49,666 bases of DNA from Chiloscyllium plagiosum (lineage: Eukaryota). The DNA lies in contig NC_057749.1 of the NCBI RefSeq assembly GCF_004010195.1, positions 13,077,276 through 13,126,941 of the forward strand, given 5' to 3'. Within the stretch, counting starts at the first letter, position 1. Each line of letters starts with the position of its first letter. A model generated the notes under the pieces. It did not search any database and was not told the DNA's origin. It saw only the letters and a list, made by a program, of their open reading frames with translations. Of this stretch, positions 2,822 through 49,026 are shown one piece after another. The translations under genes and the position numbers were made by a program.

Positions 2822-3845
2822 GGATAGAATTCTTTGAGGAGGTAAGGAGCAAGTTAGACAAAGGAGGGCCAGTGGACATGACCTATCTGGATTTCCAGAA
2901 GGTCTTTGACAAAGTGCTACACAGGAGGCTGCTAAATAAGATAGGAGCCCACCGTGTTAGGGGCAAGGTACTGGAATGGGCAAAGGATTGGCTGACTGGC
3001 AGAAGGCAGAGAGTGGGGACAAAGAGGTCTTTTTCAGGATGGCAACCCATTGACTAGTGGAGTTCTGTAAGGGTCAGTATTGGGATCACAACTGTTCAAG
3101 TTATACATTAATGATCTGGACCAAGCAACTGGGGGCATTGTTGCTAAGTTTGCAGGTGGCAGAGAGATAGGTGGAGGGAGAGGTAGTGTTCAGGAAGTGG
3201 GGAGGTGCAGTAGGACTAGACAGGCTAGGAGAATGAGTTAAGAGGTACAGATGGCATACAACTTGGGGAAAGTGTGAGGTTATGCACATTGGTCGGAGGA
3301 ATAGAGGCATGGACTATTTTCTAATGGGGGAAAGGCTTCAGAAATATGAAACACAAAGGGATATGGGAGTTCTAGTTCAGGATTCTCTTGTGGTTAACAT
3401 ACAGGTTCAGTGGGCAGTAAAGGAGGCAAATACAATGTTGGCATTCATTTCAAGAAAGCTAGAATATAAGAGCAGAGATGAAGGGGGATCTGATTGAAAC
3501 TTACAGAATACTGGATAGAGTAGATGTTGGGAAGATGTTCCCTCTAGTATGACAGACCAGGATCTGAGGGCATAGCCTCAGAGTGAAGGGACAACCCTAT
3601 GGAACTGAAAATGAGGAGGAATTTCTTCGGCTAGAGGGTGGTGAATCTGTGAAACTCTTTGCAGTAAAGGCTGTGAAGGCCAAGTCATTGAGTGTATTTA
3701 AGACAGAGATAGATAGGGCCTTGATTGGTAAGGGGATTGAGACAGGACAGTGGGGTTGAGGAATATATCAGCCATGTTTGAACGGCGCAACAGACTCAAT
3801 GGACCGAATGGCCTAATTCTGCTCCAACATCTTATGGCTTTATGG
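2822..3845 (+). mobile_element. CR1 LINE RT and 3' end, degenerate
   Basis: YLDFQKVFDKVLHRRLLNK..., MHIGRRNRG..., 3' microsatellite tail. Confidence 0.9.
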
Positions 3846-3920
3846 TCAAAAGAAGCAAACATGAGGTTAGAACATATTTTTTCAGCCAGTGAGTAGTTAG
3901 AATGCACTGCCTTGAAACGA

Positions 3921-5025
3921 TGGTCACATGACACCAGGTTATGGTCCAACGGGTTTATTTGAAATCACAATCACACCTGTATCTCCAAGGACTAGGGCAG
4001 CAGATACATGGGAACACCAGTACCTGCAAGCTCCCTACCAAGCCATCCTGGCAAGAAAATGTATCACTGCTTCTTCACTGCCGCTGGGTCAAAACCCTGG
4101 AATTGCCTCCCTGATGGCATTGTGAGTTAACCTAGAGTGGGCGGACAGCAGCGTTTAAGAAGGCAGCTCACCACCACCTTCTCAAGGAAATGAGGAACAT
4201 GCAATAAATGCTGGCCAGTCAGCAACATCCACATCCCATGAATTAATTTTAAAAAAAATTATATCCACTGCTCCTTTGTCAGGTGGACGAAGAAAACAGT
4301 CAGCTACAGAATTTATAGGCAGACAGTTCAAAAGATCACATAAACGGTGTGAGTGAAGTGTTGACTGGCTGAATACTAAATCTCTGCAGGTGATCAAAAA
4401 TGTCAAATGGGGTGGGTAAAATGTCAGCAGCTGAATAGCAATTGAAGGGAGGGCTTATGATCTAATTATCGAGACAGGGAGATGGATGCAAAACAATTAA
4501 AAATAAGGTGGTGCTGGAGACGGTGAGGGAACAAATCTATCGGAGCTTTATTGGAGCCACATTCTCACACCATTCTTCTCCAGTCCCCAGGAGCTGGGTC
4601 AAGATGTAAAGCCCTTGAAATGTCCACATGGCTGGAATAAAATGATAGGTATAAGAATTGCATGCAGAGGATCTAACGAAAGTAACAAGTAATCCAAAAC
4701 TGTACAAACTGAGGTCGAGAGGTCATAACAAGTTATCAAGTGATGGTGTCTCAATAATTGGAATATAGGCCAACCTTTCACATCCTAGTCAGCTGCTGAC
4801 ATTTTACTTACCCCATCTGACAGTTTTGATCACCTGCAGAGATTTATTATTCAACCTATTGACAGTCCACTCACACCATTTGTATGATCGTCTGATCTCT
4901 CAGCCTATAAATTCTATGCCTATTTGCTTCTCTTCATTCTACTTGATAAAGGAGCAGTGCTCCAAAATCTTGTGATTTCAATACATCTGTTGGACTATAA
5001 CCTGGTGTCATGTGACTTCTGACCT
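3921..5025. mobile_element. Palindromic Penelope-like composite (second family) with a nested LINE tail (about 3971-4260) and a captured local sequence
   Basis: Inverted arms 4307-4437 vs 4785-4915 and 3921-3970 vs about 4970-5018; decayed hammerhead cores at about 4266-4285 (-) and 4940-4970 (+). Confidence 0.7.
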
Positions 5026-5499
5026 TGCTTTCCTGGCAACACCAAGGGCGAGGACAGTGTGGATGAGTCATGTTGGACGTTGGTGTCTGAATCACTGTTT
5101 TCCAGAAGGAGGAGGCAGAACGTTCAGGCCATGAGAGTGAATGGGGGGAATGTGGGCATTTCAAGGGCTTTGCACCTTGACTCAGCTCCTGGAGACTGGA
5201 GAAGAATGGTGTGAGAATGTGGCTCCAATAGATTTGTTCCCTCACACAGTTCAGCCAAGCTTGCATTGTCAACATCGAGATTAGAGATGGAGCTTTCAAA
5301 AGTTGACTTTCTTACATTGATGTCACAGTGTTTACAAAAACCAGGCAACTCAGCATTTCTTGTTGAGTAATTCTAATTTCTTCCTTGTGTATTTTGTTTG
5401 TGTCTTCTCTGGGAGAAGGGGGTTATCTTTTGTAAAATGGAGACTAAGAACAGCGGACAGTGCTCTGTGGTCGAACCAGGTTTACTTTTTTAACATCAT

Positions 5500-6735
5500 T
5501 CTCCTGCTGATTGTCACATACCGTCCCCCCTCAGATGCTGAATTGGTACTCCTCCATGTTAAACAACACCTACAGAAAGCACTGAGAATGGCAAGGGCAC
5601 AGAATGTCCTCTGGGTGGGGGATTTCAATGTCCACCATCAGGGGTGGCTCAGCAGCAGCGTTACTGATCGCGCTGGTTGGGTCCTACAGGACATCGCTGC
5701 TAGACTGGGTCTGTGGCAGGTGGGGGGGCAATCTACAAGAGGGAAAAACATACTTGCTCATCCTGACCAATCTGCCAGCTGCAGATGTATCTGTCCATGA
5801 CTGTATCAGTAACAGTGACCATCGCACAGTCCTTGTGGAGACAAAGTCCCACCTTCACATTGAGAATACCCTCCATCGTGCTGTGTGACACTATCACCGT
5901 GCTAAATGGGACAGACTTCAAACTGATCTAGCAACTCGAGACTGGGTATCCATGAGGCATTGTGGGCCATCAACAGCAGCAGAACTGTCCTCCAGCACGA
6001 TCTGTAACCTCATGGCCTGGCATATCCCCCACTCAACCATTACCATCAAGCCAGGGGATCAACCCTGGTTCAATGGAGAGTGCAGGAGGGCATGCCAGGA
6101 GCAGCACCAGGTATACCTGATGGTGAGGTGTCAACCTGGTGAAGCCCCCAAACAGGATTACTTACATGCCAAACAGCATAAACAGCAAGTGGTAGGCAGA
6201 GCTAAGTGATCCCACAACCAATGGATCAGGTCTAAGCTCTACAGTCCTGTCACATCCAGTCAAGAATGATGGTAGATGATTAAACAACTCATTAACTGAA
6301 ACAGACTGTGTCCATGTTCAGCAAAACCTGGACAATATCCAGGCTTGGGTTGCTTAGTACCATTCATGCCATGAAAGTGCCAGCCAGTGATCATCTCCAA
6401 TTGGAGACAATCAAACTATTGCTCCTTGATATTCAATGGCATTATCATCACTGAGCCTCCAGCATCCTGAGAGTTACCATTGACCAGAAGCGGAACAGGA
6501 GCAGACAATTAAATACAACCAAGAGCAGGTCAGAATCCTGCAGTGAGTAACTCACCTCCTGACTCCCCAAAACCTATCCATCCTCAAGGCACAAGTCAGG
6601 AATCTGATAGAATACTCCCCATTTGTCTTGTCACTCAGTCAAAATCCTAGAATTCCCTCACTAAGGGCATTGTGGGTCACCCTCCAATAGGACTGCAGTG
6701 GTTCAAGAAGGCAGCTCACCCCCACCTTCCCAAGG
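5500..6735 (+). mobile_element. Non-LTR retrotransposon (L2/CR1-group), APE endonuclease to 3' end, internally deleted
   Basis: TYRPPS...VGDFNVHH...SDHRTVLV...PWFNGEC; 3' end shared with about 4000-4250, 24860-25030 and 34900-35510. Confidence 0.85.
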
Positions 6736-11661: not shown

Positions 11662-12716
11662 ACCCTAACCCTAACCCTAATCCAACCCGAATTCTAACCC
11701 GAACCCTAACCCGAACCCGAACCCAACCCTAATCCTAATCCCTAAACCTAATCCCAACCCAATCCCTAACCATGATATTAGCTCTAACCCGAACCTAAAC
11801 CCTAATCCCTAAACCAAACCCAAACCCTAGCCCTAACCTGAAACCCTAAATGTAATCCCTAACCCTAACCCTAACCCTGGCATTAACTCCAACCCTAACT
11901 CTAACCCGAAACCTAACCCTAACCCTGACATTAACTCTAATCCGAATCCTTACCCTAATCCCTACCCCTAATCCTAATCCCTAACACTAAACCTATCATT
12001 AATCATTAACCCTAATCCCTAAACATAGACTTAATTCCTAACCATAAATCCTAGCCCTTATTCCTAACCCTAATCCTAATCCTATTCTTAACCCTCACCC
12101 TAATATTAACACTAACCCTAATCCTAACCTTAACCCTAACCCTAACCTTAACATTAAACCTAACCTACCCTAACCCTAACATTATCCCTAACCCCACCCT
12201 AACCCTAACCCAACCCTAACCCTAACTCTTAGGGGAAAGATTTAAAAAGGATCAAAGGGACAACTTTTTCACGCAGAGGGTGGTGCGTGTATGGAGTGAG
12301 CTGTCAGAGGAAGTGGTGGAGGTTGGTACAATTGTAACATTTAAAAGGCAACTGGATGGGTTTATGAATAGGAAGGGTTTGGAGGGATTTGGGCCAAATG
12401 CTGGCAAAAGGGACCAAATTAGGTTAGGATATCTGGTCGGCATGGACGAGTTGGACCGAAGGGTCTGTTTCCATACTGTAAATCTCTATGACTCTTTGAC
12501 TAACCCTAACCCTAATCCGAACCTTGAATTCTAACGCTGACCCCTAACCCTTATGCTAACCATAGTCCTAACCTTACTGCCCTAATCCTAACCCCAATCC
12601 TAACCCTAACCCTAACCCAAACCCTAATCCTAACCGTAACTCTAATCTTAACCCTAACACTAACAATAAACCTAACCCTTACCCTAACTCTAACTATAGG
12701 TTAATCCTAATCCCAA
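11662..12716. repeat. Degenerate interstitial telomere-like (CCCTAA)n array, interrupted by a CR1 fragment; short remnant at 14335-14380
   Basis: Runs of CCCTAA/TCCTAA/CCCGAA/CTCTAA. Confidence 0.93.
12231..12498 (+). mobile_element. CR1 (HER1-like) LINE 3' end inside the telomere-like array
   Basis: [47 protein letters not shown] tail. Confidence 0.9.
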
Positions 12717-14330
12717 TTTCTGGATTAGTGGTGCTGGAAGAGCACAGCAGTTCAGGCAGCATCCAAGGAGCAGCAAAATCGACGTTTTGGGCAAAATCCC
12801 TTCATCAGGAATAAAGGCAGAGAGCCTGAAGCATGGAGAGATAAGCAAAAGGAGGGTGGGGGTGGGGAGAAAGTAGCATAGACTACAATGGGTGAGTGGG
12901 GGAGGGGATGAAGGTGATAGGTCATGGAGGAGAGGGTGGAGTGGATAGGTGGAAAAGGAGATAGACAGGTAGGACAAGTCATGGGGACAGTGCTGAGCTG
13001 GAAGTTTGGAACTAGGGTGAGGTGGGGAAAGGGGAAATGAGGAAACTGTTGAAGTCCACATTGATGCCCTGGGGTTGAAGTGTTCCGAGGCGGANNNNNN
13101 NNNNNNNNNNNNNNNNNNNNNNNNNNNNNNNNNNNNNNNNNNNNNNNNNNNNNNNNNNNNNNNNNNNNNNNNNNNNNNNNNNNNNNNNNNNNNNNNNNNN
13201 NNNNNNNNNNNNNNNNNNNNNNNNNNNNNNNNNNNNNNNNNNNNNNNNNNNNNNNNNNNNNNNNNNNNNNNNNNNNNNNNNNNNNNNNNNNNNNNNNNNN
13301 NNNNNNNNNNNNNNNNNNNNNNNNNNNNNNNNNNNNNNNNNNNNNNNNNNNNNNNNNNNNNNNNNNNNNNNNNNNNNNNNNNNNNNNNNNNNNNNNNNNN
13401 NNNNNNNNNNNNNNNNNNNNNNNNNNNNNNNNNNNNNNNNNNNNNNNNNNNNNNNNNNNNNNNNNNNNNNNNNNNNNNNNNNNNNNNNNNNNNNNNNNNN
13501 NNNNNNNNNNNNNNNNNNNNNNNNNNNNNNNNNNNNNNNNNNNNNNNNNNNNNNNNNNNNNNNNNNNNNNNNNNNNNNNNNNNNNNNNNNNNNNNNNNNN
13601 NNNNNNNNNNNNNNNNNNNNNNNNNNNNNNNNNNNNNNNNNNNNNNNNNNNNNNNNNNNNNNNNNNNNNNNNNNNNNNNNNNNNNNNNNNNNNNNNNNNN
13701 NNNNNNNNNNNNNNNNNNNNNNNNNNNNNNNNNNNNNNNNNNNNNNNNNNNNNNNNNNNNNNNNNNNNNNNNNNNNNNNNNNNNNNNNNNNNNNNNNNNN
13801 NNNNNNNNNNNNNNNNNNNNNNNNNNNNNNNNNNNNNCCCATACGTGTGCCCATGGCTACCCCTTTGGTCTGGAGGAAGTGGGAGGATTCAAAGGAGAAA
13901 TTGTTAAGGGTGAGGACCAGTTCGGCCAAACGAATGAGAGTGTCGGTGGAAGGGTACTGTTTGGGACGTCTGGAGATGAAAAAACGGAGGGCTTGGAGGC
14001 CCTGGTCATGGTGGATGGAGGTGTAGAGGGATTGGATATCCATGGTGAAGATGAGGCGTTGGGGGCCGGGGAAACGGAAGTCTTGGAGGAGGTGGAGGGT
14101 GTGGGTGGTGTCTCGAACGTATGTGGGGAGTTCCTGGACTAGGGGGGGTAGGCCAGTGTCGAGGTAGGTAGAGATGAGTTCAATGGGGCAGGAGCATGCT
14201 GAGACAATAGGTCGGCCAGGGTGGTCAGGCTTGTGGATCTTGGGAAGGAGGTAGAACCGGGCAGTGCGGGGTTCCTGGATTATGAGGTGGGAAGCTGTGG
14301 GTGGGAGATCCCCTGTGGTGATGAGGTTTT
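12717..14330 (-). mobile_element. Penelope-like retroelement (RT to 3' end, partly in gap)
   Basis: MDIQSLYTSI...LNNFSFESSHFLQTKGVAMGTRM (PLE RT), RLGTLQPQGIN (end of endonuclease), pseudo-LTR with hammerhead-like core at about 12781-12808. Confidence 0.93.
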
Positions 14331-14806
14331 GATTTTAACCCTAATCCCAAACCCAACCCCAGCGGTAAACCTCACCACAACTCTATCCTTACCCAGACAC
14401 AAACTTCAGATTAGCAGAAAGCACCACATATTTCAGTAAAACAGAAAGCAGGTTGGTGTTGGGGGGATGGGGAGAGAGAGCCACTTCATTCATTCAAACA
14501 GGAATCCCAGCTGAGCCTCTCGATGATGATGAAATGGGAATAAAAACTGACCAAAGTTTAATTCAGGACCCCATTTCCATAAATAATATTAGACCAAGAT
14601 ATTACTTACACTCCCACCTGTTTAGTCACATTAGAGCCTGCTTTCAATTTGCATAATAATAATTTATCTAATTGGAATAAGTCGTGTGGGATTTCTATTA
14701 TAATCAGTTTGATCTCAAGCAAAGCTATAATTATTGTCCCGTTAGCAATGGGGCCAGCCAGGAGTTTGTAAGTAATATGATTTTTTAATGATCTCATTTT
14801 AATCAA

Positions 14807-24229: not shown

Positions 24230-24860
24230 GACTCTTCCCAACATCCACTCTGTCCAGGCCATTCAGTATTCTGTATGTTTGAATTAGATCCCCCTCATCC
24301 TGCTAAACTCCATCGAGTATAAACCCACAGTCCTCAAACATTCCTCATATCTTAAGCTTTTCATTCCTGGGACCATTCTCATGAACTTCCTGTGAGCACA
24401 CTCCAGGGTCAGTACCTCCTTCTTGAGATATGGAGCCCAAAACTGCACATAATACTCTAATGTGGTCTGACCAGAGTCTTGCAGAGCCTCAGAAGTACAT
24501 CCCTGTTTTTATATTCAAGTCCCCTCAAAATAAATGCCATTATTGCATTTGCCTTCCTAACTACTGACTCAACCTGCGAGTTTACTTTGAGAGAATCCTG
24601 GACGAGAACTCTCAAGTCTCTTTGTGCTTCAGAATTCTGAATTTTCTCCCCATTTAGAAAATAGTCCAAGCCTCTATCCTTCCTACAAAAGTGCATGACT
24701 TTAGACTTTCCCACATTGTACTCCATCTACCAGTTCTTTGCCCACTCTCCTAACCTGCCCAAATCCTTCTGCAGCCTCCCCTCCTCCTCAATGCTACCTG
24801 CCCCTTTACCTATCCTTGTATCATTTGCAAACTTTGCCAGAATGCACCCAGTTCCTTCAT
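24230..24860 (-). mobile_element. CR1 RT C-terminal fragment
   Basis: MEYNVGKSKVMHF...QRDLRVLVQDSLKV...KTLVRPH. Confidence 0.88.
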
Positions 24861-26136
24861 TGTCATTGGGTCAAAATCCTGGAATTCCCTCCCTAAGGGC
24901 TTTGTGGGTCTACCCACAGCACATGGACTGCAGTGGTTCAAGAAGGCAGTTCACCCCCACCTTCTCAAGGGGCTACTAGGGACGGGGCAATAAATGCTGG
25001 ACCAGCCAGTGACACCCATGCCCCATGAGAGAAAGTAAAGTCTTATGTATGGAACATGAACTGAGGTAGACTGTCCAGTCCTGCTCCACTAGTCAATACG
25101 AACAGGACTGATCTGTCCATGGTTTAAAGTGCATCTTCATCTCACTCTGCTATCTCAGGCTCCGGTGTCTCTCCATCCTGTGAGAGAGAAATCAAAATCC
25201 TCTTTAAAAAGTGAGCTCTGAAAGCTGCATCTCTTACCTGGACTAATCCACAAGAGGAAACATCCTTTCCATGGTCACCTTGTCCAGACCATCAGGATCT
25301 TATCCACATCAATCAGTCCCCCCCCCCCCCCCCCCCCCCCCCCCAGTGGAAACAAGCCCAGTCTGTCCCCTCTTTCCCCATAACACAACCCACTCATTCC
25401 AGCTCTCCCCCTGGTAAACCTCCCCTGAACCAGCCTCCAATGTACTGGTATCCTTCTGTAAGTAAGAAGGTTGAATTGTCAGAATGGGAACGATGGTGAA
25501 ATGGGGTGATGGTGTCAATGTAGGTTCAATAGTCAGGGCAGTTTCAGGAGAAAGGGTGCAGCGATTGGGGATTAAACAAAAGGGACAATTAGGAAGTTGG
25601 AATACCCTCTGGATGTGCAGATACTGAAATGACTGANNNNNNNNNNNNNNNNNNNNNNNNNNNNNNNNNNNNNNNNNNNNNNNNNNNNNNNNNNNNNNNN
25701 NNNNNNNNNNNNNNNNNNNNNNNNNNNNNNNNNNNNNNNNNNNNNNNNNNNNNNNNNNNNNNNNNNNNNNNNNNNNNNNNNNNNNNNNNNNNNNNNNNNN
25801 NNNNNNNNNNNNNNNNNNNNNNNNNNNNNNNNNNNNNNNNNNNNNNNNNNNNNNNNNNNNNNNNNNNNNNNNNNNNNNNNNNNNNNNNNNNNNNNNNNNN
25901 NNNNNNNNNNNNNNNNNNNNNNNNNNNNNNNNNNNNNNNNNNNNNNNNNNNNNNNNNNNNNNNNNNNNNNNNNNNNNNNNNNNNNNNNNNNNNNNNNNNN
26001 NNNNNNNNNNNNNNNNNNNNNNNNNNNNNNNNNNNNNNNNNNNNNNNNNNNNNNNNNNNNNNNNNNNNNNNNNNNNNNNNNNNNNNNNNNNNNNNNNNNN
26101 NNNNNNNNNNNNNNNNNNNNNNNNNNNNNNNNNNNN

Positions 26137-33515: not shown

Positions 33516-36500
33516 CTGGATTGAAGAAATTTTATTTAGGATTATAAAATTATCAGGTGATTATCAAAACTAACAGATTCAGCTCTTTTCACAGTAGGTA
33601 TTGTTCAGGGAAGTTACAAACTTAGGTAGAATATAGCTCATCTCACAGTTTTGAATGTTTTGTATAATTCTGACCTCGACAATACACGGGGAACACAAAG
33701 TACTGGAGAAAGTACAATTAAGATTTACTAGAATAATATTTTAACTGAGGAGGTTTAACTATCAGAAAGGATGGAACAAGCTGGAAATATTTTCTCTAGA
33801 AACAGAGAACAGACCAGCTGGCGGGATTCAAAACGATGACAGGACTTGCTAAGGTAGATGTTTTGAGGGGGGGGGGGGGAGAAGAGGTGGATGGATAGAA
33901 AGAGAGTTGGGGAGAAACGAGGAAAGGGTAGGGGTGGGTAGAGGTAGGATACCAAAATCTAGGAGATCTAAATCATTGATAAATCCAGTATGGATCCAAG
34001 AGTAAATTCTTCAGTTGGGGAAATGTGAAACTCATCACATGGTGTATTTCAGCAGATCAGAATAACTACATTTAACTAGAATAGTACAGGAGGGAGAAAA
34101 GATTAGAATAGGTCAACAGATTGAAATAACTAGAATGGGAAGCAGCTGGTGTGGTGGATTAACATCTATACTGACCTGTTGGGCTGAATATTCTGTTTTG
34201 TGTCATAAATTCAATGTAATGCAAAGTGATCATTTCACTGCGGGCTCCCCTCTCATCCAACACCAGTGCATGCACCTGTACGAAGGTCTGCATTATGCAG
34301 CTTGTGTGGGAAGTCATCAGTTCCTTGTGGATCTACCGTGCAACTTGCTCTCAGCTCAAAACTGTCAGCATTTCTTTACACTCTCTCTTGGCTATCACAG
34401 CAAAATAGAAAGAGCATCTATGCAGAGCCAGAGCCAGAATGCAGATATATGCAAAGGTTCATCAATGAATGGCTGCAGAAGATCAAGCATCTGGCAATGG
34501 TACATTGACATTGATTGCAGCTTGAGCCATACCTCTATTTTTATCACTGTGAAATCGGGCACTGGAGGGTCATACAGAGAAACACATGGATCACAAGGAT
34601 CCCGAACAGATGGAAAGATCTTCTCCCTTGCTGGTGCAGGTGTGTAATTGAGCATTTCACAAAGGGTCTGAACATCAATGAATTTTGGAGTGAGCCCAGC
34701 TCGCACAGTATTATCAGAACATGCCATACATTCTATACAATCTAGAAAGGAAAATAAAGTTAATCAACACCTGCTCATTATTCACATGCTATCACTTACA
34801 TATCTCTCAGCAATTAGAGCCAGAATAGCTGATGTGTTAGTTGCAGAATTTGAAAAATGCATATTCGCACTATACAAGTGGTGGGTAATCCTCATCCCTC
34901 TGACATTTAATGGCATTCCAATGCTGAATCCTCCATCAACATCCTGGGGGTTATCACTGACCAGAAACTAAACTGAGCAAGCTATATAAATATAATGATT
35001 ATGATTAGGTTGGAGACTTGGAATTCTGTGGCAAGTCACCCATCCCCTAACTCTCCAAAGCCATCTATCATCTACAAGGTCAAAAGTCAGGAGTGCAATG
35101 GAATACTCATCACTTGCTTAGATGAATGCAGCTCTAACAACATTCAAGAATCTTAACGCTATACAGAACTATACTTCAACAGCTCTGCATGACTGGTTCT
35201 CATACACCAACTCCCCACATTCACACCCTCCAATACCAACTCAGTGGCAGCAGTGTGTACTATTTGCAGGAGCCATAGCAACACTCCTTTGACATCACCT
35301 GCCAGACCTACAAACCGAAAGGCCAAGAGCAAGTGATGCATGGGAGCGCCAGCATTTGCAAGATCTTCCACAGACTACAAAACATCCTCACATGGAACTA
35401 TATCAGTGTTTCTTCACTACCTCTTGGTCAAAATGCCGAATTCCATCCCTATCAGTACTGTAGGTGTATCAACACCACATAAATTGAGTAGTTCAAGGAG
35501 GCAACTCACCCACTGATAAGTGGCAGATGGAGTTTATATAAATGTGAGGTGCTGCTTTTTGGGACAGCAAACCTTAGCAGGACTTATACACTTAATGGTA
35601 AGGTCCTAGGGAGTGTTGCTGAACAAAGAGACCGTGGAGTGCAGGTTCATAGCTCCTTGAAAGTGTAGATAGGATGGATTAGACGGCATATGGTATGCTT
35701 TCCTTTATTGGTCAGAGTATCGAGAACAGGAGTTGGGAGGTCATGCTGCAGCTATACAGGACATTGGTTAGGCCACTGTTGGAATATCACGTGCAATTCT
35801 GGTCTCCTTCCTACCGGAAAGATGTTGCCAGGGTTGGAGGTTTTGAACTATAGGGAGAGGTTGAATAGGCTCGGGCTGTTTTCCCTGGAGCTTCAGAGAC
35901 TGAGGGGTGACTTTATAGAGGTGTATAAAATCATGAGGGGCATGGATAGGATAAATAGACAAAGTATTTTCCCTGGGGTGGGGGAGTTCAGAACAAGAGG
36001 GCATAGGTGAGAAGGGAAAGATATAAAACAGGCCTAAGGGGCAACTTTTTCACGCAGAGGGTGGTACGTGTATGGCATGAGCTGCCAGAGGAAGTGGTGG
36101 AGGAGGCCAGTACAATTGCAACATTTAAAAGGGATCTGGATGGGTATATGAATAGGAAGGGTTTGGAGGGATATGGGTTGGGTGCTGGCAGGTTGGGATA
36201 TCTGGTCGGCATGGACAGGTTGGACCAATGGGTCTGTTTCTGTGCTGTACATCTCTATGACTTTATGACTCTGTGACCCATATCTTCTCAATGACAAGTA
36301 GGAATGGGCAATAAATTCCAGCCTAGCCAGCCACGTTCACAATTTAATTCAAGAATTCAAGTAGTAGTACAGATGTCGACATAATCATTCTAAATGGTGC
36401 AAGTTACTAAAAATTGTTCACACTTCCAACTATCAAAAATTATTTCCCGCTATCACCTTATTAGTCAACACTTTTGCGTCAACATTTGACACGGTTGATT

Positions 36501-42500: not shown

Positions 42501-45500
42501 CGCTCTCTGAAAGTTGACCCCATGTACCTCCACGTAAAAACAACCACCTTGGATTTTGTATGAAGTGAAGAAAACTAAAGTACCTCAGCATAGGGTTTCT
42601 CTTGCTCAATGGCTATAGAGGGATCATCACTTAAAGTGAGTTTTGCTACCTCACTCTCCAGGCCAACTTTCCCCCAGGCATAATGCTGCACGACACACTT
42701 CAGCGGGAACACTGAAGAAACAAAAAGATTGAAGATCGCTGTTGGTCTCTAAATTATAGTGCAACACTCAAGGTATGGTGATTGCTTGACACAGTGCATA
42801 TTAGAATTAAGATACTGAACTTGATTTTAACTTTCAAATCAATTAGGCAATAAAAAGCTGCAAATTGAGACAATTTTGTTTTAAAACAAAGAACACTTTG
42901 AAATCATGTAAAAGTCAAATGGGGTCTAAATCAATGTGTTTGTTGATAGAGTTCTGGTTGGGAGTGCCATGCTTCTATGAATTCTAGGAGACATGTCCAG
43001 TGTGGGCAACCCTTGTCCTAGGACTGATGTGTTGTCCCAGATTTTGAGCCCACATACAATCTTTCAAATCGCCAGGTTCATTTTCTAATCAGAGAAAATG
43101 AGGACTACAGATGCTGGAGATCAGAGTCAAAACGTGTGGTGCTGGAAAAGCACAGCCATTCAGGCAACATCCAAAGAGGAGAGTTGACATTTCAAGCATT
43201 CCTCATGAACAGCTTATGCTCAAAACATCAACTTTCTTGCTCCTCAACTGGCTGTGCTTTTCCAGTGTCACACTTTTTGACTTATTTTTCATTAGGGAGG
43301 AGAAAGTGAGGTCTGCAGATGCTGGAGATCAGAGCTGGAAATGTGTTGCTGGAAAAGCGCAGCAGGTCAGGCAGCATCCAGGGAACAGGAGAATCGACGT
43401 TTCGGGCATAAGGGCTTATGCCCGAAACGTCGATTCTCCTGTTCCCTGGATGCTGCCTGACCTGCTGCGCTTTTCCAGCAACACATTTCCAGCTTATTTT
43501 TCATTAGACCAACCAAGAGCAACGTGCATAAGACTAGAGTAGCTAATAGTTGGTGTGAACATTGCAATAAAGTAGGATGAGCACAAATCATTGGAGAAAA
43601 GGAGGTTCAGGGGTGACTTGATAGAGGTGTACAAGATGATTAGGGGTTTAGATAGGGTTGACAGTGAGAATCTTTTTCCACGTATGGAGTCAGCTATTAC
43701 AAGGGGGCATAGCTTTAAATTAAGGGGTGGTAGGTATAGGACAGATGTTAGGGGTTCTTTACTCAGCGAGTCGTGAGTTCATGGAATGCCCTGCCAGTAG
43801 CAGTGGTGGACTCTCCCTCATTATGGGCATTTAAGCAGGCATTGGATAGGCATATGGAGGATAGTGGGCTAGTGTAGGTTAGGTGGGCTTGGATCGGCGC
43901 AACATCGAGGGCCGAAGGGCCTGTACTGCGCTGTATTCTTCTATGTTCTAAATCAACTGGCAGCAGCACTGCCCATGATTAATTGATACATATCCCCTTA
44001 TAAAGTCCAATATAGTGGGAAAGGTGGGCAAGACGTTTTAGAAACAAAATCAAATGGTCAGAGCCTCCTCACTAAAGCAGAACTGCCTCATTAAATGGGA
44101 AGCTCTTTACAGCCACTTACTGAAGGAAATATTGACACATACTTCATCCAAAATACTGATAACAAGAAAGATTGGTAGTTCAGGAAGTGAGTGGCTTGTG
44201 CAAGGTTTCTGAGAAGGCATTTGTATTGCTTTTCCCAACAAAGCAGTAAAAATCCTGGAAGGCCAGCAAATTAAGAATGTTCTAAATGCATGTTTGCTCG
44301 CTGAGCAGGAAGATTCGTTTTCAGATGTTTCATCACCACATGAGGTAACATCATCAGTGAGCCTCTGGTGAATCGCTGATGTTGTGACCCACTTTCTATT
44401 TATATGTTTAGGTTTCCTTGGGTTGGTGATGTCATTTCCAGCTCTTTGTTTCAGAGGGTGGTAGAATAGGGTCTAAATCAATGTGTTTCATGATAGGGTT
44501 CTGTTGGAGTGCCATACTTCAAGGAATTCTAGGAAGCTTGTGCAGTGTGGGATCCCTTGTCAGAGGACTGATGTGTTGTCCCAGTCAAAATGTTGTCCTT
44601 CCTCATCTGTATATAAGGATACTAGTAAGAGTGGGTCATGTCTTTTTGTGGCAAGTTAACGTGCATGTATCCTGGTGGCTAGCTTCCTTGCTAAAACTGT
44701 AACAACATTACATTGGACAAACAGGCAGAAAGCTAGCCACCAGGATATTTAAATATCAACTAGTCACAAAAAGACATGACCCACTCTCACTAGTATCCTT
44801 ACATACAGATAAGGAAGGACACCACTTCGAGTGGGACAACAGATCCATCTTTGGACAAACCAAACAGAGACATGCACAAGAATTCCTAGAAGCATAGCAC
44901 TCAAACCAGAAGTCTATCAACAAACATTGATTTAGACCCCATCTACCACCCTCTGAGAAAAAGAACCAGAAGTGACATCAACAACCCAAGGAAACCTAAA
45001 CACAAATAGAAAGCAGGTCATAACACCTACGCTTCACCACAGGCTCACTGATGTTAGCTAATATGGTGAAGAAACATCTGAGTATAAACCTTCCAGCTCA
45101 GCAAGTAAACTTACATCCAGAACCTAACCTGAGCAACAAATCTTCTCAAAACTTACTAATTAAGAATGCTCTCAACTGGCTGTGAGAGGGTGGATAGGAT
45201 GGGAGGGGAGATGAGGAAGGATNNNNNNNNNNNNNNNNNNNNNNNNNNNNNNNNNNNNNNNNNNNNNNGGGGGCACTGGACAGGGGGGAGGGAGAGGGAG
45301 AGGGAGAGGGAGAGGGAGAGGGGGAGGGGGAGGGCCACCCCTGCCCCTGCCCCTGCCCCTGCCCCCGCCCCCCAAACACTGGACATGGCCCCCGCCGTGC
45401 CCCTACATACTGGACAGGGCCCCCCAGGCGGCAGGGAGGCAGCCCTTACTCTGACCTTTAAACCAACACAGCAGACCGCCCTCACTAAGGCCCGAATCCC

Positions 45501-45610
45501 ACACTCCGGCCCACGGGCCCCCTGAATGCTCTGTATGACCGTGACTCGGTGCCGCCAGTCCCCTGATATTAACCGAATTGAAATTCCGCCTCACCCTTCA
45601 CCGCCGCCAT
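33303..45610 (-). CDS. MPI: Mannose-6-phosphate isomerase, whole coding span (8 exons, 1263 nt, 420 aa)
   Basis: Spliced frame runs [20 protein letters not shown]...LWMGAHPKG...[10 protein letters not shown]...LSIQAHP...[20 protein letters not shown]...[31 protein letters not shown]...FRACCML*. All introns are GT-AG with compatible phases. Exon sizes are 16/128/201/142/180/174/209/213. Confidence 0.98.
34533..34741 (-). CDS. MPI: MPI exon 7
   Basis: ctttctag|[32 protein letters not shown]...[13 protein letters not shown]|gtatg, 209 nt. Confidence 0.98.
34890..36340 (+). mobile_element. LINE 3' part with a nested CR1 (about 35515-36275), in MPI intron 6
   Basis: CR1 RT C-terminus ([14 protein letters not shown]...[11 protein letters not shown]); the host LINE tail resumes at about 36280. 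Confidence 0.85.
36856..37029 (-). CDS. MPI: MPI exon 6
   Basis: ttctatag|...[47 protein letters not shown]|gtaag, 174 nt. Confidence 0.97.
38446..38625 (-). CDS. MPI: MPI exon 5
   Basis: ttgttgcag|[14 protein letters not shown]...[15 protein letters not shown]|gtttg, 180 nt. Confidence 0.96.
39962..40103 (-). CDS. MPI: MPI exon 4
   Basis: ttttcag|[47 protein letters not shown]|gtaag, 142 nt. Confidence 0.98.
41359..41559 (-). CDS. MPI: MPI exon 3
   Basis: ctaatag|[11 protein letters not shown]...[22 protein letters not shown]|gtaagt, 201 nt. Confidence 0.98.
42584..42711 (-). CDS. MPI: MPI exon 2
   Basis: tttcttcag|(V)[42 protein letters not shown]|gtac, 128 nt. Confidence 0.97.
43093..43494. 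mobile_element. Two adjacent palindromic PLE-end insertions (old 43093-43280; young 43296-43494 with 15-bp TSD)
   Basis: CTTATTTTTCATTAG at 43281-43295 and 43493-43507; perfect 80-bp inverted arms in the young copy. Confidence 0.9.
43591..43950 (+). mobile_element. CR1 3' end
   Basis: [23 protein letters not shown]...TRGHSFKL. Confidence 0.9.
44284..45157. mobile_element. Palindromic Penelope-like element (third family) with GIY-YIG remnant and 15-bp TSD
   Basis: [14 protein letters not shown] at about 44705; inverted arms of about 400 bp; AATTAAGAATG(T/C)TCT at 44269-44283 and 45158-45172; hammerhead-like core 44324-44357 (-). Confidence 0.85.
45283..45372. repeat. (GGGAGA)n and (CCCCTG)n simple repeats
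   Basis: Direct observation. Confidence 0.9.
45595..45610 (-). CDS. MPI: MPI exon 1 (coding part)
   Basis: ATG GCG GCG GTG AAG G|gtgag inside a CpG island; 16 nt, phase 1, joins exon 2 in frame. Confidence 0.93.
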
Positions 45611-45720
45611 CAGCCCGCTCCAGGCAACACGCGCCAAGCCGACGCGTCATCGCCGGGCCACGTAATCACGTGGAGGAGGGGCACGTGGCCGAGGTGGCTG
45701 CCGGGAATTGTAGTCCTTCC
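45611..45720 (-). promoter_or_regulatory. MPI 5' UTR / CpG-island proximal promoter with two E-boxes and a ZNF143/THAP11-type motif
   Basis: GC/CpG-rich sequence directly upstream of the ATG; CACGTG at 45667-45672 and 45682-45687; minus-strand GGACTACAATTCCCGGCAGCC at 45696-45716. Confidence 0.8.
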
Positions 45721-46314: not shown

Positions 46315-46736
46315 CTATATCTGTTGTGCAGGCAAACGTGACAACCAATCCATTTTTTAAAAAAAGCTTCTTTTTTAGGAAGACATGTTGGTCAAAATAT
46401 TCAGAAAGCTTTTTTTCCTGATTAGTAATTTTATTCTACCTGACGAGGCAAACAATGCCTTGTATTATCAGAGACTGGGATTGTCATAGTGTTGAGGGCT
46501 CAGACGGAGAGGAATTTGTTTAAATGTGTATAAAAAAATTTCAAAATTCAGTTTGTGGATGTACCTCCCAGAGAAACAGAAAAAACCTGACCTTCTCTTG
46601 GGAAATAAGGCAGGACAAGTGACTGAAGTATCAGTGGGGAAGCACTTTGAGGCCACTGATCATAATTCTGTTAGTTTTAAAATAATGGTGGAAAAGGATA
46701 GACTTGATCTAAAAGTTCAAGTTCTACATTGTAGGA

Positions 46737-47105
46737 AGCTGAAAATGTGTTGCTGGAAAAGCGCAGCAGGTCAGGCAGCATCCAGGGAACAGGAGAATCG
46801 ACGTTTCGGGCATAAGCCCTTCTTCAGGAAGGATTAATATCAGGGAACTGGCGGCACCGAGTCACGGTCATACAGAGCATTCAGGGAGCCCGTGGGCCAG
46901 AGTGTGAGATTCGGGCCTTAGTGAGGGCGGTCTGTTGTGTTGGTTTAAAGATCAGAGTAAGGGCTGCCTCCCTGCCATTCCTGAAGAAGGGCTTATGCCC
47001 GAAACGTCGATTCTCCTGTTCCCTGGATGCTGCCTGACCTGCTGCGCTTTTCCAGCAACACATTTTCAGCTCTGATCTCCAGCATCTGCAGTCCTCACTT
47101 TCTCC
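46737..47105. mobile_element. PLE inverted-arm cassette carrying a captured 143-bp MPI intron-1 fragment
   Basis: Identical 94-bp arms 46737-46830 and 46978-47071; filler 46834-46976 is the reverse complement of 45430-45572; TSD CTA(C/A)ATTGTAGGAAG at 46724-46738 and 47106-47120. Confidence 0.93.
46981..47008 (+). ncRNA. Minimal hammerhead ribozyme motif (mirror copy at 46800-46827 on minus)
   Basis: CUGAAGA-A-GGGC-UUAU-GCCC-GAAAC-GUC. Confidence 0.7.
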
Positions 47106-49026
47106 CTAAATTGTAGGAAGGCCAATTTTGTTGGTATTATGAGCTTTCAAACATTGATTGGGACAGGCTAGTCACAGGTAAAGGGATGTTGGAAAGTGGG
47201 AGGCCTTCAAAAATGAGATGAGATAGTATGTTCCTGTTAGGGCAAGGCTGGTACATGTTGGGAATGCTAAATGATTAGATAGATTGAGGTTATGGTCCAG
47301 GAAAAGGCGGAGGCATATGTCAGGTTGAGAAAGCTGGGATCAAGTGAATCCCTGGAGGAATACAAGGCAGTAGGAATATACTTAAGAGGGAAATAAGGAA
47401 GGCAAAAAGGGGACATTTGATAGCTTTGTCAAATAAAGTTAATGAGAATCCAAAGAGACTCTACAAATACATTAAGGGTAAAAGAGTAACCAGAGAAGGA
47501 ATAGGACCCCTTAAAAATCAACAAGGCCATATATGTGTGGAACCCCAGGAGACGAATACAATACTAAACAAATAATTTGCATCAATAATTACTGTGGAGA
47601 AAGACATGGAAGCTAGAAAACTTGGGAAATAAATAGTGCTATCTTGAAAAGTGCCCATATTAAGCTAGATGTCTTAAAATGCAATAAGGTGGATAAATCT
47701 CTGGGACCTAATCAGCCATACTGTAGAACTCTCTGGGAAGCGAGGGAAGTGATTTCTAGGCCCCTTGCTGAGATATTTGTATCATCAATAGCCACAGGTG
47801 AAGTGCCAGAAGACTAGAGGTTGGCCAACGTGGTGCCACTATTTAAGAAAAATGTTAATAAAAAGCCAGGGAACTATAAACCAGTGAGCCTGACTTTGGT
47901 GGTGGGTAAGTTGTTGGAGGCAATCCTGAGGGACAGGATTTACATGTATTTGGAAAGGCAAGGACTGTTTAGGAATAGTCAACATGGCTTTGTGCGTGGG
48001 AAATCATGTCTCACTAACTTCATGTCTCACTAACTTCAAAAAATAACAAAGACGATTGATGAGGGCAGAATGGTGGATGTGATCTATATGGACTTCAGTA
48101 AGGTGTTCAACAAGGTTCCTAATGTTAGCAAGGTTAGATCACATGGAATACAGGGAAAACCAGCTATGTGGATAAAGAACTGGCTTGAAGATAAAGAGTG
48201 GTGGTGAGAGTTGCTTTTCAGACTGGACGCCTGTGACCAGCAGTGTGCCACAAGAGATTAGCACTGGGTCCACTGTTTTTTGTTATTTATATAAATGATT
48301 TGGATGTGAACATAAGAGGTATGGTTAGTAAGTGTGCAGATGACAGTAAAATTGGAGGTGTAGTGGACAGCAAAGAAGGTTACCTCAGAGTACAATGGAA
48401 TCTTGGTCAGAGGGGCCAATGGGCTGAGGAGTGGCAAATGGAGTTCAATTTAGATAAATGTGAGCTGCAGCATTTTGGAAAGGCAAATCGGAGCAGGACT
48501 TATACACTTAATGGTAAGGGCCTGGGGAGTGTTGCTGAACAAAGAGACCTTTGTTCATAGTTCCTTGAAAGTGGAGTGACAGGTATATAGGATAGTGAAG
48601 GTGGTTGGTACGCTTTCCTTTATTAGTCAGTGCATTGAGTATAGGAGTTGGGAGGTCATGTTGCAGCTGTATAAGACATTGATGAGGCCACTTTTGGAGT
48701 ATTGCATGCAGTCTAGTCTCCCTCCTATAGGATGTTGTGAAACTTGAAAGGCTTCAGAAAACATTTACGAGGATGTTGCCAGGGTTGAAGGGTTTGAGCT
48801 ATAAGTGGCTGAATAGGCTGGGACTTTTTTCCCTGCAGCATTGGAGGCTGAGCTTAGAGGTGTTCATAAAATCATGGGAGCATGGTTAGGGTAAATAGGC
48901 AAACTAGAGGGCATAGGTTTAGGGTGAGAGGGGAAAGATTTAAAAGGGACCTGAGGGTCAACTTTTTCTTGCAGAAGGTGGTGTGTGTGGAATGAGCTGC
49001 CAGAGGAAGTAGTAATGGTTGGTACA

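Follow-up and report, generated by a model that had tools for sequence, protein, structure and literature searches.

The segment 4523–4629 of the window (the whole stretch of 49,666 nucleotides analysed here) is an inverted, one-off copy of a nearby segment, 5150–5245, by which it was templated locally. Most likely it is an ordinary repair scar belonging to a known type of event (MMBIR/SD-MMEJ-like), and not a trace of the integration of the PLE-like element in which it lies. In our opinion, the scar was formed by short-homology template switching long after integration, in an already dead element, and this reading is given a probability of about 0.8.

The Inverted Copy and Its Source

Local alignment shows that 4523–4629 is the reverse complement of 5150–5245 over 96 columns, of which 91 are identical, and contains 11 extra bases; all five mismatches are transitions, and none of them is at CpG. 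The alignment score is 142, whereas none of 300 dinucleotide shuffles of the flank scored above 27, and blastn within the window gives E 7e-31 for the pair. The source begins 123 bases past the right end of the element (5027) and lies 520 bases from the copy. Thus, the inverted copy itself and the distance of about 125 bp beyond the right arm, both given in the preliminary description of this DNA, are borne out. The same description mentioned a few substitutions, which were found, and a short slippage duplication, which holds in part: the extra piece consists of 9 repeated bases, one of them mismatched, and two additional T, and it has an alternative template at 5288–5296. The features of the locus are collected in Table 1.

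Table 1. Positions of the element, of the inverted copy within it and of the source.
Feature	Positions	Strand	Remarks
Left arm, outer part (3′ end of PLE-like element, end of hammerhead-bearing module)	3923–3970	-	Pairs with 4970–5016, 89.6%
High-copy SINE/LINE-tail-like repeat (putative name) within left arm	3971–4265	+	Family contigs skip from 3970 to 4266/4267
Left arm, inner part	4266–4476	-	43/211 differences from 4747–4959
Element body left of insert (unpaired part of long copy)	4477–4521	-	High family depth; paralog joints leave at 4518/4521
Templated insertion	4522–4629		4522 is a base of neither origin; then inverted copy of 5150–5245
11-nt extra piece within copy	4538–4548		Slip duplication, or 9-nt excursion to 5288–5296
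Element body right of insert, to 5′ truncation point	4630–4746	-	High family depth; paralog piece 4631–4740, ~90%
Right (inverted) arm	4747–5027	+	Alignment; family contigs end at 5023/5027
Source (donor), intact single-copy flank	5150–5245		Contig depth; no sign of coding constraint
Candidate second template for extra piece	5288–5296	+	Matches over 9 nt when 5288 is C, the base of organisms B and C

The Element Carrying the Copy

The family contigs terminate at 3923 and at 5023/5027, and the ends proposed earlier for the element (3921–5025) are corrected accordingly to 3923–5027. Its arms, 3923–4476 (minus a nested repeat) and 4747–5027, form an inverted terminal-repeat arrangement such as is described for Penelope elements (PMC3846280, in part), and the fold-back junction, 4746/4747, is bridged by contigs in organisms B and C. 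Past 3970, family contigs continue into a consensus whose reverse complement looks like a hammerhead core having a helix II of 5 pairs, as judged by eye against the relevant part of PMC4209133. A putative, decayed minimal-hammerhead motif is located in the right arm at ~4942–4970, and a motif scan of the 3923–5027 copy for a hammerhead gave no match. Rfam gave 0 matches to E = 5 in 3800–5600, and no remnant of RT or GIY-YIG was found in 3900–5500 when two pieces of PLE protein from the window were used in tblastn (nothing below E = 1.7). The copy is therefore filed as an end fragment that appears PLE-like by its architecture only, namely the inverted arms and the hammerhead-like core in the family end consensus. 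The only TSD candidate is a 5-base match, 3910/5023, which is not adjacent to the left end; a TSD of great age could have been lost by decay.

The repeat nested in the left arm (295 bases) took the place of ~10 element bases, is 69–78% like 6638–6735, 24855–25028 and 35319–35450, and its right junction is bridged in public contigs of organisms A, B and C. It shares ~100 bases at 78% with 6638–6735, which lies downstream of a LINE endonuclease remnant at ~5500–5800. Beyond the right arm, at 5052, organisms B and C carry 11 bases absent from the window.

Copy Number and Position against the Family

Public contigs of 4 out of 24 runs were compared with 3750–5600 at 85% likeness: X5 (organism A), X9 (organism B), and X17 and X18 (both organism C). 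Statements about individual pieces concern 32 of 89,751, and those about individual differences 40 of 195 rows. X5 has 7 differences from the window in 953 bases. Summed depth in the bin 4556–4617, inside the insert, is 10, 5.5, 0 and 6.4 in X5, X9, X17 and X18, respectively, and rises to 500–28,000 in the flanking bins 4432–4555 and 4618–4741. Over 5052–5485 it is 0–8, except for 29 in X17 from one contig; at the source it is 5–8 in X5, X9 and X18, with the same 29 in X17. Contig depth is not equal to copy number, but unique and repeated DNA can be told apart here because their depths differ by two to three orders of magnitude. The hole in X17, which is ~87% read, is not evidence of absence, and X18, from the same organism, bridges the place.

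Three of the 12 joints shown, out of 453, cross the insertion site: 4521→4628, 4521→4632 and 4518→4642, with 7, 11 and 25 letters between them, all in X17 and read as paralogs. In place of the 106 bases of the window they show 7, 7 and 8, so that the insert, 4522–4627, stands in for ~7 element bases. A further 117 bases of element body separate the insert from the fold-back junction. The stretch 4477–4746 had earlier been taken for a spacer between the arms, but outside the insert it is high-copy family sequence. Because these flanks are high-copy and paralogs read across the site, the supposed spacer is the unpaired part of a long element copy, interrupted by the insert.

These data bear on the possibility that the segment is a part of the element consensus, or a small independent repeat inserted twice, to which practically no probability can be assigned and in favour of which nothing was found. 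Depth is single-copy at both places in three of the four runs and at the source in all four, family copies are without the segment, and neither local alignment nor blastn found a third copy of the 96 bases in the window. An element-consensus or common-repeat origin, which the preliminary description had itself considered, is excluded in both forms, barring a low-copy subfamily that carries the insert. So is the case, raised there too, of a duplication older than the PLE, since an insert that interrupts the element body cannot predate the element.

Age of the Insert and Age of the Element

The two arms show 49 differences over 260 positions (18.8%, CI 14–24%; K2P of the inner arms 0.24), whereas copy and source show 5 over 96 (5.2%, CI 1.7–11.7%), i.e., about four times less. 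The difference is significant by Fisher's test (p = 0.0008), with only 96 copy/source sites, and it is also seen in transversions (19/260 against 0/96, p = 0.003). It persists at non-CpG sites (p = 0.003), by which the inflation of arm divergence through CpG decay is ruled out. The insert is accordingly younger than the element, provided that the arms were identical at insertion. Such initial identity seems probable because the arms of two young fold-backs in the window show no differences (94/94 and 80/80) and each arm of the present element carries private changes against 84–99% of family depth (4415 in the left arm, 4890 and 4892 in the right one). Thirteen paralog pieces differ from the 3923–5027 copy by 10–16.5%, under the cut-off of 85% likeness.

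The insert junctions are bridged by one contig in each of organisms A (3 differences), B (15 differences and 4 gap letters in 481 bases) and C (5 differences and no gap), and in C the 11-base piece is present too. Therefore, the insert, and judging from C also the 11-base piece, predates the split of these organisms. Bridging in three organisms also rules out an assembly artefact. The window differs from organism C at 62 of 1217 positions (5.1%) and from organism B at 51 of 1207 (4.2%). Both values come from pieces close to the locus or bridging its unique junctions (4 of the 16 listed for C and 4 of the 8 for B), to the exclusion of duplicates from X17 and of pieces resembling paralogs. The copy/source divergence of 5.2% equals this 4–5%. 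Of the five copy/source mismatches, four are among the 40 difference rows (of 195) covered: at three of these, both B and C have the base of the copy, and at the remaining one C has it. In these rows, the copy differs from the source alleles of the window, X5, B and C by 5, 4, 4 and 4 bases, as expected for copying just before the A/B/C split. At 5194 and 5201, copy and source of the window agree with each other against B and C, which fits a B + C clade, or also some conversion between copy and source that makes the copy look younger.

A constrained source that slows the clock was considered and ruled out. The source flank has 34 differences from organism C in 552 bases (6%) and so diverges at least as fast as the element. 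The 82-codon frame 5124–5372, which overlaps the source, has no Pfam match, and of 15 changes to C listed for it, 10 are non-synonymous. All three organisms carry the insert, no outgroup with the element and without the insert was found among them, and the metagenome scan gave 0 matches to an empty site; the order of insertions hence rests on divergence and nesting.

Proposed Capture during Integration

In the preliminary description, the insert was linked to PLE integration or its immediate repair. On this account, the PLE reverse transcriptase would leave its RNA, copy 96 bases of nearby DNA and return 7 bases further on, and later gene conversion would be needed to keep copy and source alike. 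The location of the insert between inverted arms agrees with such an origin, and there are parallels: Penelope repeats of Adineta enclose captured host DNA (PMC3846280, in part), L1 insertions can carry sequence templated near the site (PMC11702581, in part), and a junction capture inside a TSD exists at 46.7 kb of the window itself. Sites 5194 and 5201 could reflect the required conversion. However, 117 element bases separate the insert from the fold-back point, so it is not at the junction, and the fourfold lower divergence of copy and source would demand that conversion had swept nearly all of the 96 bases shortly before A, B and C split, had left the 11-base indel untouched, and had not homogenised the arms, which are longer. 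Taken together, capture at integration is very unlikely, and late repair is preferred.

The 46.7-kb cassette differs from the insert 4523–4629 in every respect tested. It has 143 captured bases at the arm junction and arms identical at 94 of 94 positions, and it is enclosed by a TSD of 10–11 bases (46728–46738 and 47110–47120); its anatomy is that of an integration product. The insert 4523–4629 cannot be counted with it, being inside the element body and less diverged than the arms. Thus, of the "two cases in 50 kb", from which it had been argued that inverted local templating recurs in PLE integration, one is left. Junction capture in PLEs may well recur, 4523–4629 not being an instance of it.

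As a separate observation on the cassette, its copy (46834–46976) and source (45430–45572) have 6 differences, in each of which the copy has A/T and the source G/C. On the + strand of the copy, these are five G→A and one C→T (sign test, p = 0.03), and the contrast of 0/94 differences in the arms with 6/143 between copy and source gives p = 0.08. The bias could be due to deamination during capture or to GC-biased change in a promoter-proximal source.

Junctions and Probable Mechanism

At the right junction, two bases (4628–4629, AT) are common to template and element, and with the second paralog joint the homology becomes 5/6 with one mismatch. A 2-base microhomology is expected by chance in ~7% of cases according to the part of PMC7165422 concerned and is hence weak. 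The left junction has 0 bases of homology in the window, B and C, where 4522 matches neither side; X5 has T at this position, which is the next base of the template. No TSD, no repeat of 3 or more bases and no poly(A) were found at the ends of the insert. An 8-base match of 4514–4521 to 5189–5196 was rejected as a priming site; it has the wrong orientation and needs a base at 5193 that is absent from X5, B and C.

Within the copy, the extra piece separates tracts of 81 nt and 15 nt. It matches the opposite strand of 5288–5296 at 9/9 bases, given the C at 5288 of the B and C allele; a match of this length was reached in 40 of 2000 shuffles, in a test chosen after the match had been seen. Either as a slip or as a jump, the piece represents a re-priming event, in agreement with the earlier view that the micro-duplication looks like re-priming by a polymerase.

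A snap-back geometry is proposed since an inverted copy of the right flank is what a resected right end would produce by folding back; such geometry gives inverted inserts in the systems treated in part of PMC5728401. The following course of events may be suggested. A PLE-like end would have integrated as the fold-back 3923–5027 with identical arms, which would then have decayed to ~15% apart before the insertion (19% now, less ~5% since). Shortly before the divergence of A, B and C, a germline break or a stalled fork would have occurred near 4521–4628. The right-hand end would have been resected, and by the most economical path its 3′ tail would have folded back and primed at 5150, 520 bases off, on the AT match (5/6 with one mismatch). 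Synthesis on what was probably a DNA, not RNA, template would have run for 81 bases, added the 11 extra ones in a single slip or jump, and continued for another 15 before its release. Finally, the product would have joined the left-hand end with 0–2 bases of homology and a loss of ~7 element bases.

Regarding the enzymes putatively involved, Pol theta inserts are 3–30 bp long, with first tracts rarely exceeding 10 bp (PMC7165422, in part). An 81-base tract taken from 520 bases off exceeds them, and for this reason we lean, if only slightly, to an MMBIR/fork-stalling type of repair. A long-tract Pol theta/SD-MMEJ process is a real but lesser possibility, and some other repair mechanism is improbable.

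An RNA-templated patch, that is, a class 2 templated sequence insertion (TSIP) in which a local transcript is reverse-transcribed into a break, should also be weighed. The absence of TSD and poly(A), the microdeletion, the one non-templated base, the intact donor and the size (73–414 bp in the experimental set) are like those of class 2 TSIP in the part of PMC5110952 covered, and the genome is rich in reverse transcriptases. On the other hand, the donors reported there are distant and thought to act via RNA, unlike the donor here, which is adjacent at 520 bases, and the inverted adjacent geometry is what DNA snap-back predicts. This origin therefore has little probability.

A further variant of late repair, not exclusive of the reading preferred here, is that the element itself provoked the break by hairpin extrusion or by re-nicking with the GIY-YIG endonuclease of its family. 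The fold-back still folds (-142 kcal/mol, z = -16.9 against 20 shuffles), and the break would be within its loop, of ~171 bases before the insertion. Also relevant is an anole PLE protein that in vitro introduces nicks into AT-rich DNA, with its own pLTR junction among the sites nicked (PMC11167929). In the parts of this paper covered, nicking on both strands and internal priming are described, and no excursions to neighbouring DNA are mentioned. Against such provocation, this is a single case, and of the 46,900 called bases of the window at least 3991 (8.5%) are PLE-derived, so that a random insertion will often land in them. Moreover, the arms were already ~15% diverged and 170 bases apart, and divergence and separation of arms weaken the fragility of hairpins. 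We consider provocation by the element unlikely. A repair patch within PLE DNA needs no special cause, given that such DNA occupies at least this share of the window.

Comparison with Known Templated Insertions

In the human germline, inverted, multi-template insertions are a common kind of variant and arise independently of any element. Per person, ~100 calls of 25 bp or more were obtained, including 10–11 classical and 26–33 complex ones (PMC8421209, in part). The insert resembles these germline MMB-TI in that a nearby intact template was copied in inverted orientation, with homology at the junctions that is at most short or imperfect, possibly with a second template switch, and was fixed as a harmless germline variant. 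Unlike them, it has a template 520 bases off, beyond the 100-bp search radius of that study, and it is not a polymorphism, being dated through three related organisms. It may be said to work like MMB-TI without being filed as such.

With Pol theta and snap-back SD-MMEJ products, as presented in parts of PMC7165422 and PMC5728401, the insert shares an inverted local template, homology of <3 bases, a small deletion and a sign of more than one round of synthesis; the length and distance of its 81-nt tract distinguish it from Pol theta TINS (3–30 bp). With the Penelope captures of Adineta vaga and the 46.7-kb cassette it shares host sequence between PLE terminal repeats. Those captures are located between the repeats or at their junction, in some cases within the TSD (PMC3846280, in part), unlike the present insert, which breaks into the body of the element and is of far more recent origin than the latter. 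In the literature searched, a scope that leaves out most subscription journals, no paper was found on local templated insertions in vertebrate PLE fold-backs.

Other Features of the Window

The window is eukaryotic and repeat-rich. An exon of mannose-6-phosphate isomerase (MPI) was found at 34395–34763 on the minus strand (E 1.5e-12), and a likely first MPI exon with a GC-rich promoter is read from the sequence at ~45595–45720, also on the minus strand. An old fold-back of a third repeat family (44557–44688/44727–44858) has arms 17% different and a 38-base centre. Another inverted pair, 18344–18420/28529–28605, comprises 77 bases at 99% identity, 10 kb apart. Degenerate telomere-like hexamer arrays, at 11662–12226 and 12500–12694, adjoin a PLE fragment (12728–14400).

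Conclusions

The insert 4523–4629, a well-dated example of what is probably an ordinary repair scar, can be used as a control: that DNA lies between PLE arms does not in itself show that the element captured it. Junction captures, such as that at 46.7 kb, can be told from later patches, such as 4523–4629, by their position relative to the family sequence and their age relative to the arms.

A more general idea, speculative and rather improbable on present data, is that fold-back PLEs remain prone to breaks over millions of years, whether by extrusion of hairpins or by renewed nicking with the endonuclease of their own family, and that repair copies neighbouring DNA into their loops. If this is true, the very abundant PLE fold-backs would gather inverted local duplications by a late route, beside junction capture at integration. 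Should such patches prove enriched in fold-back loops across the whole genome, PLE fold-backs would act in this lineage as a long-lived source of local rearrangements.
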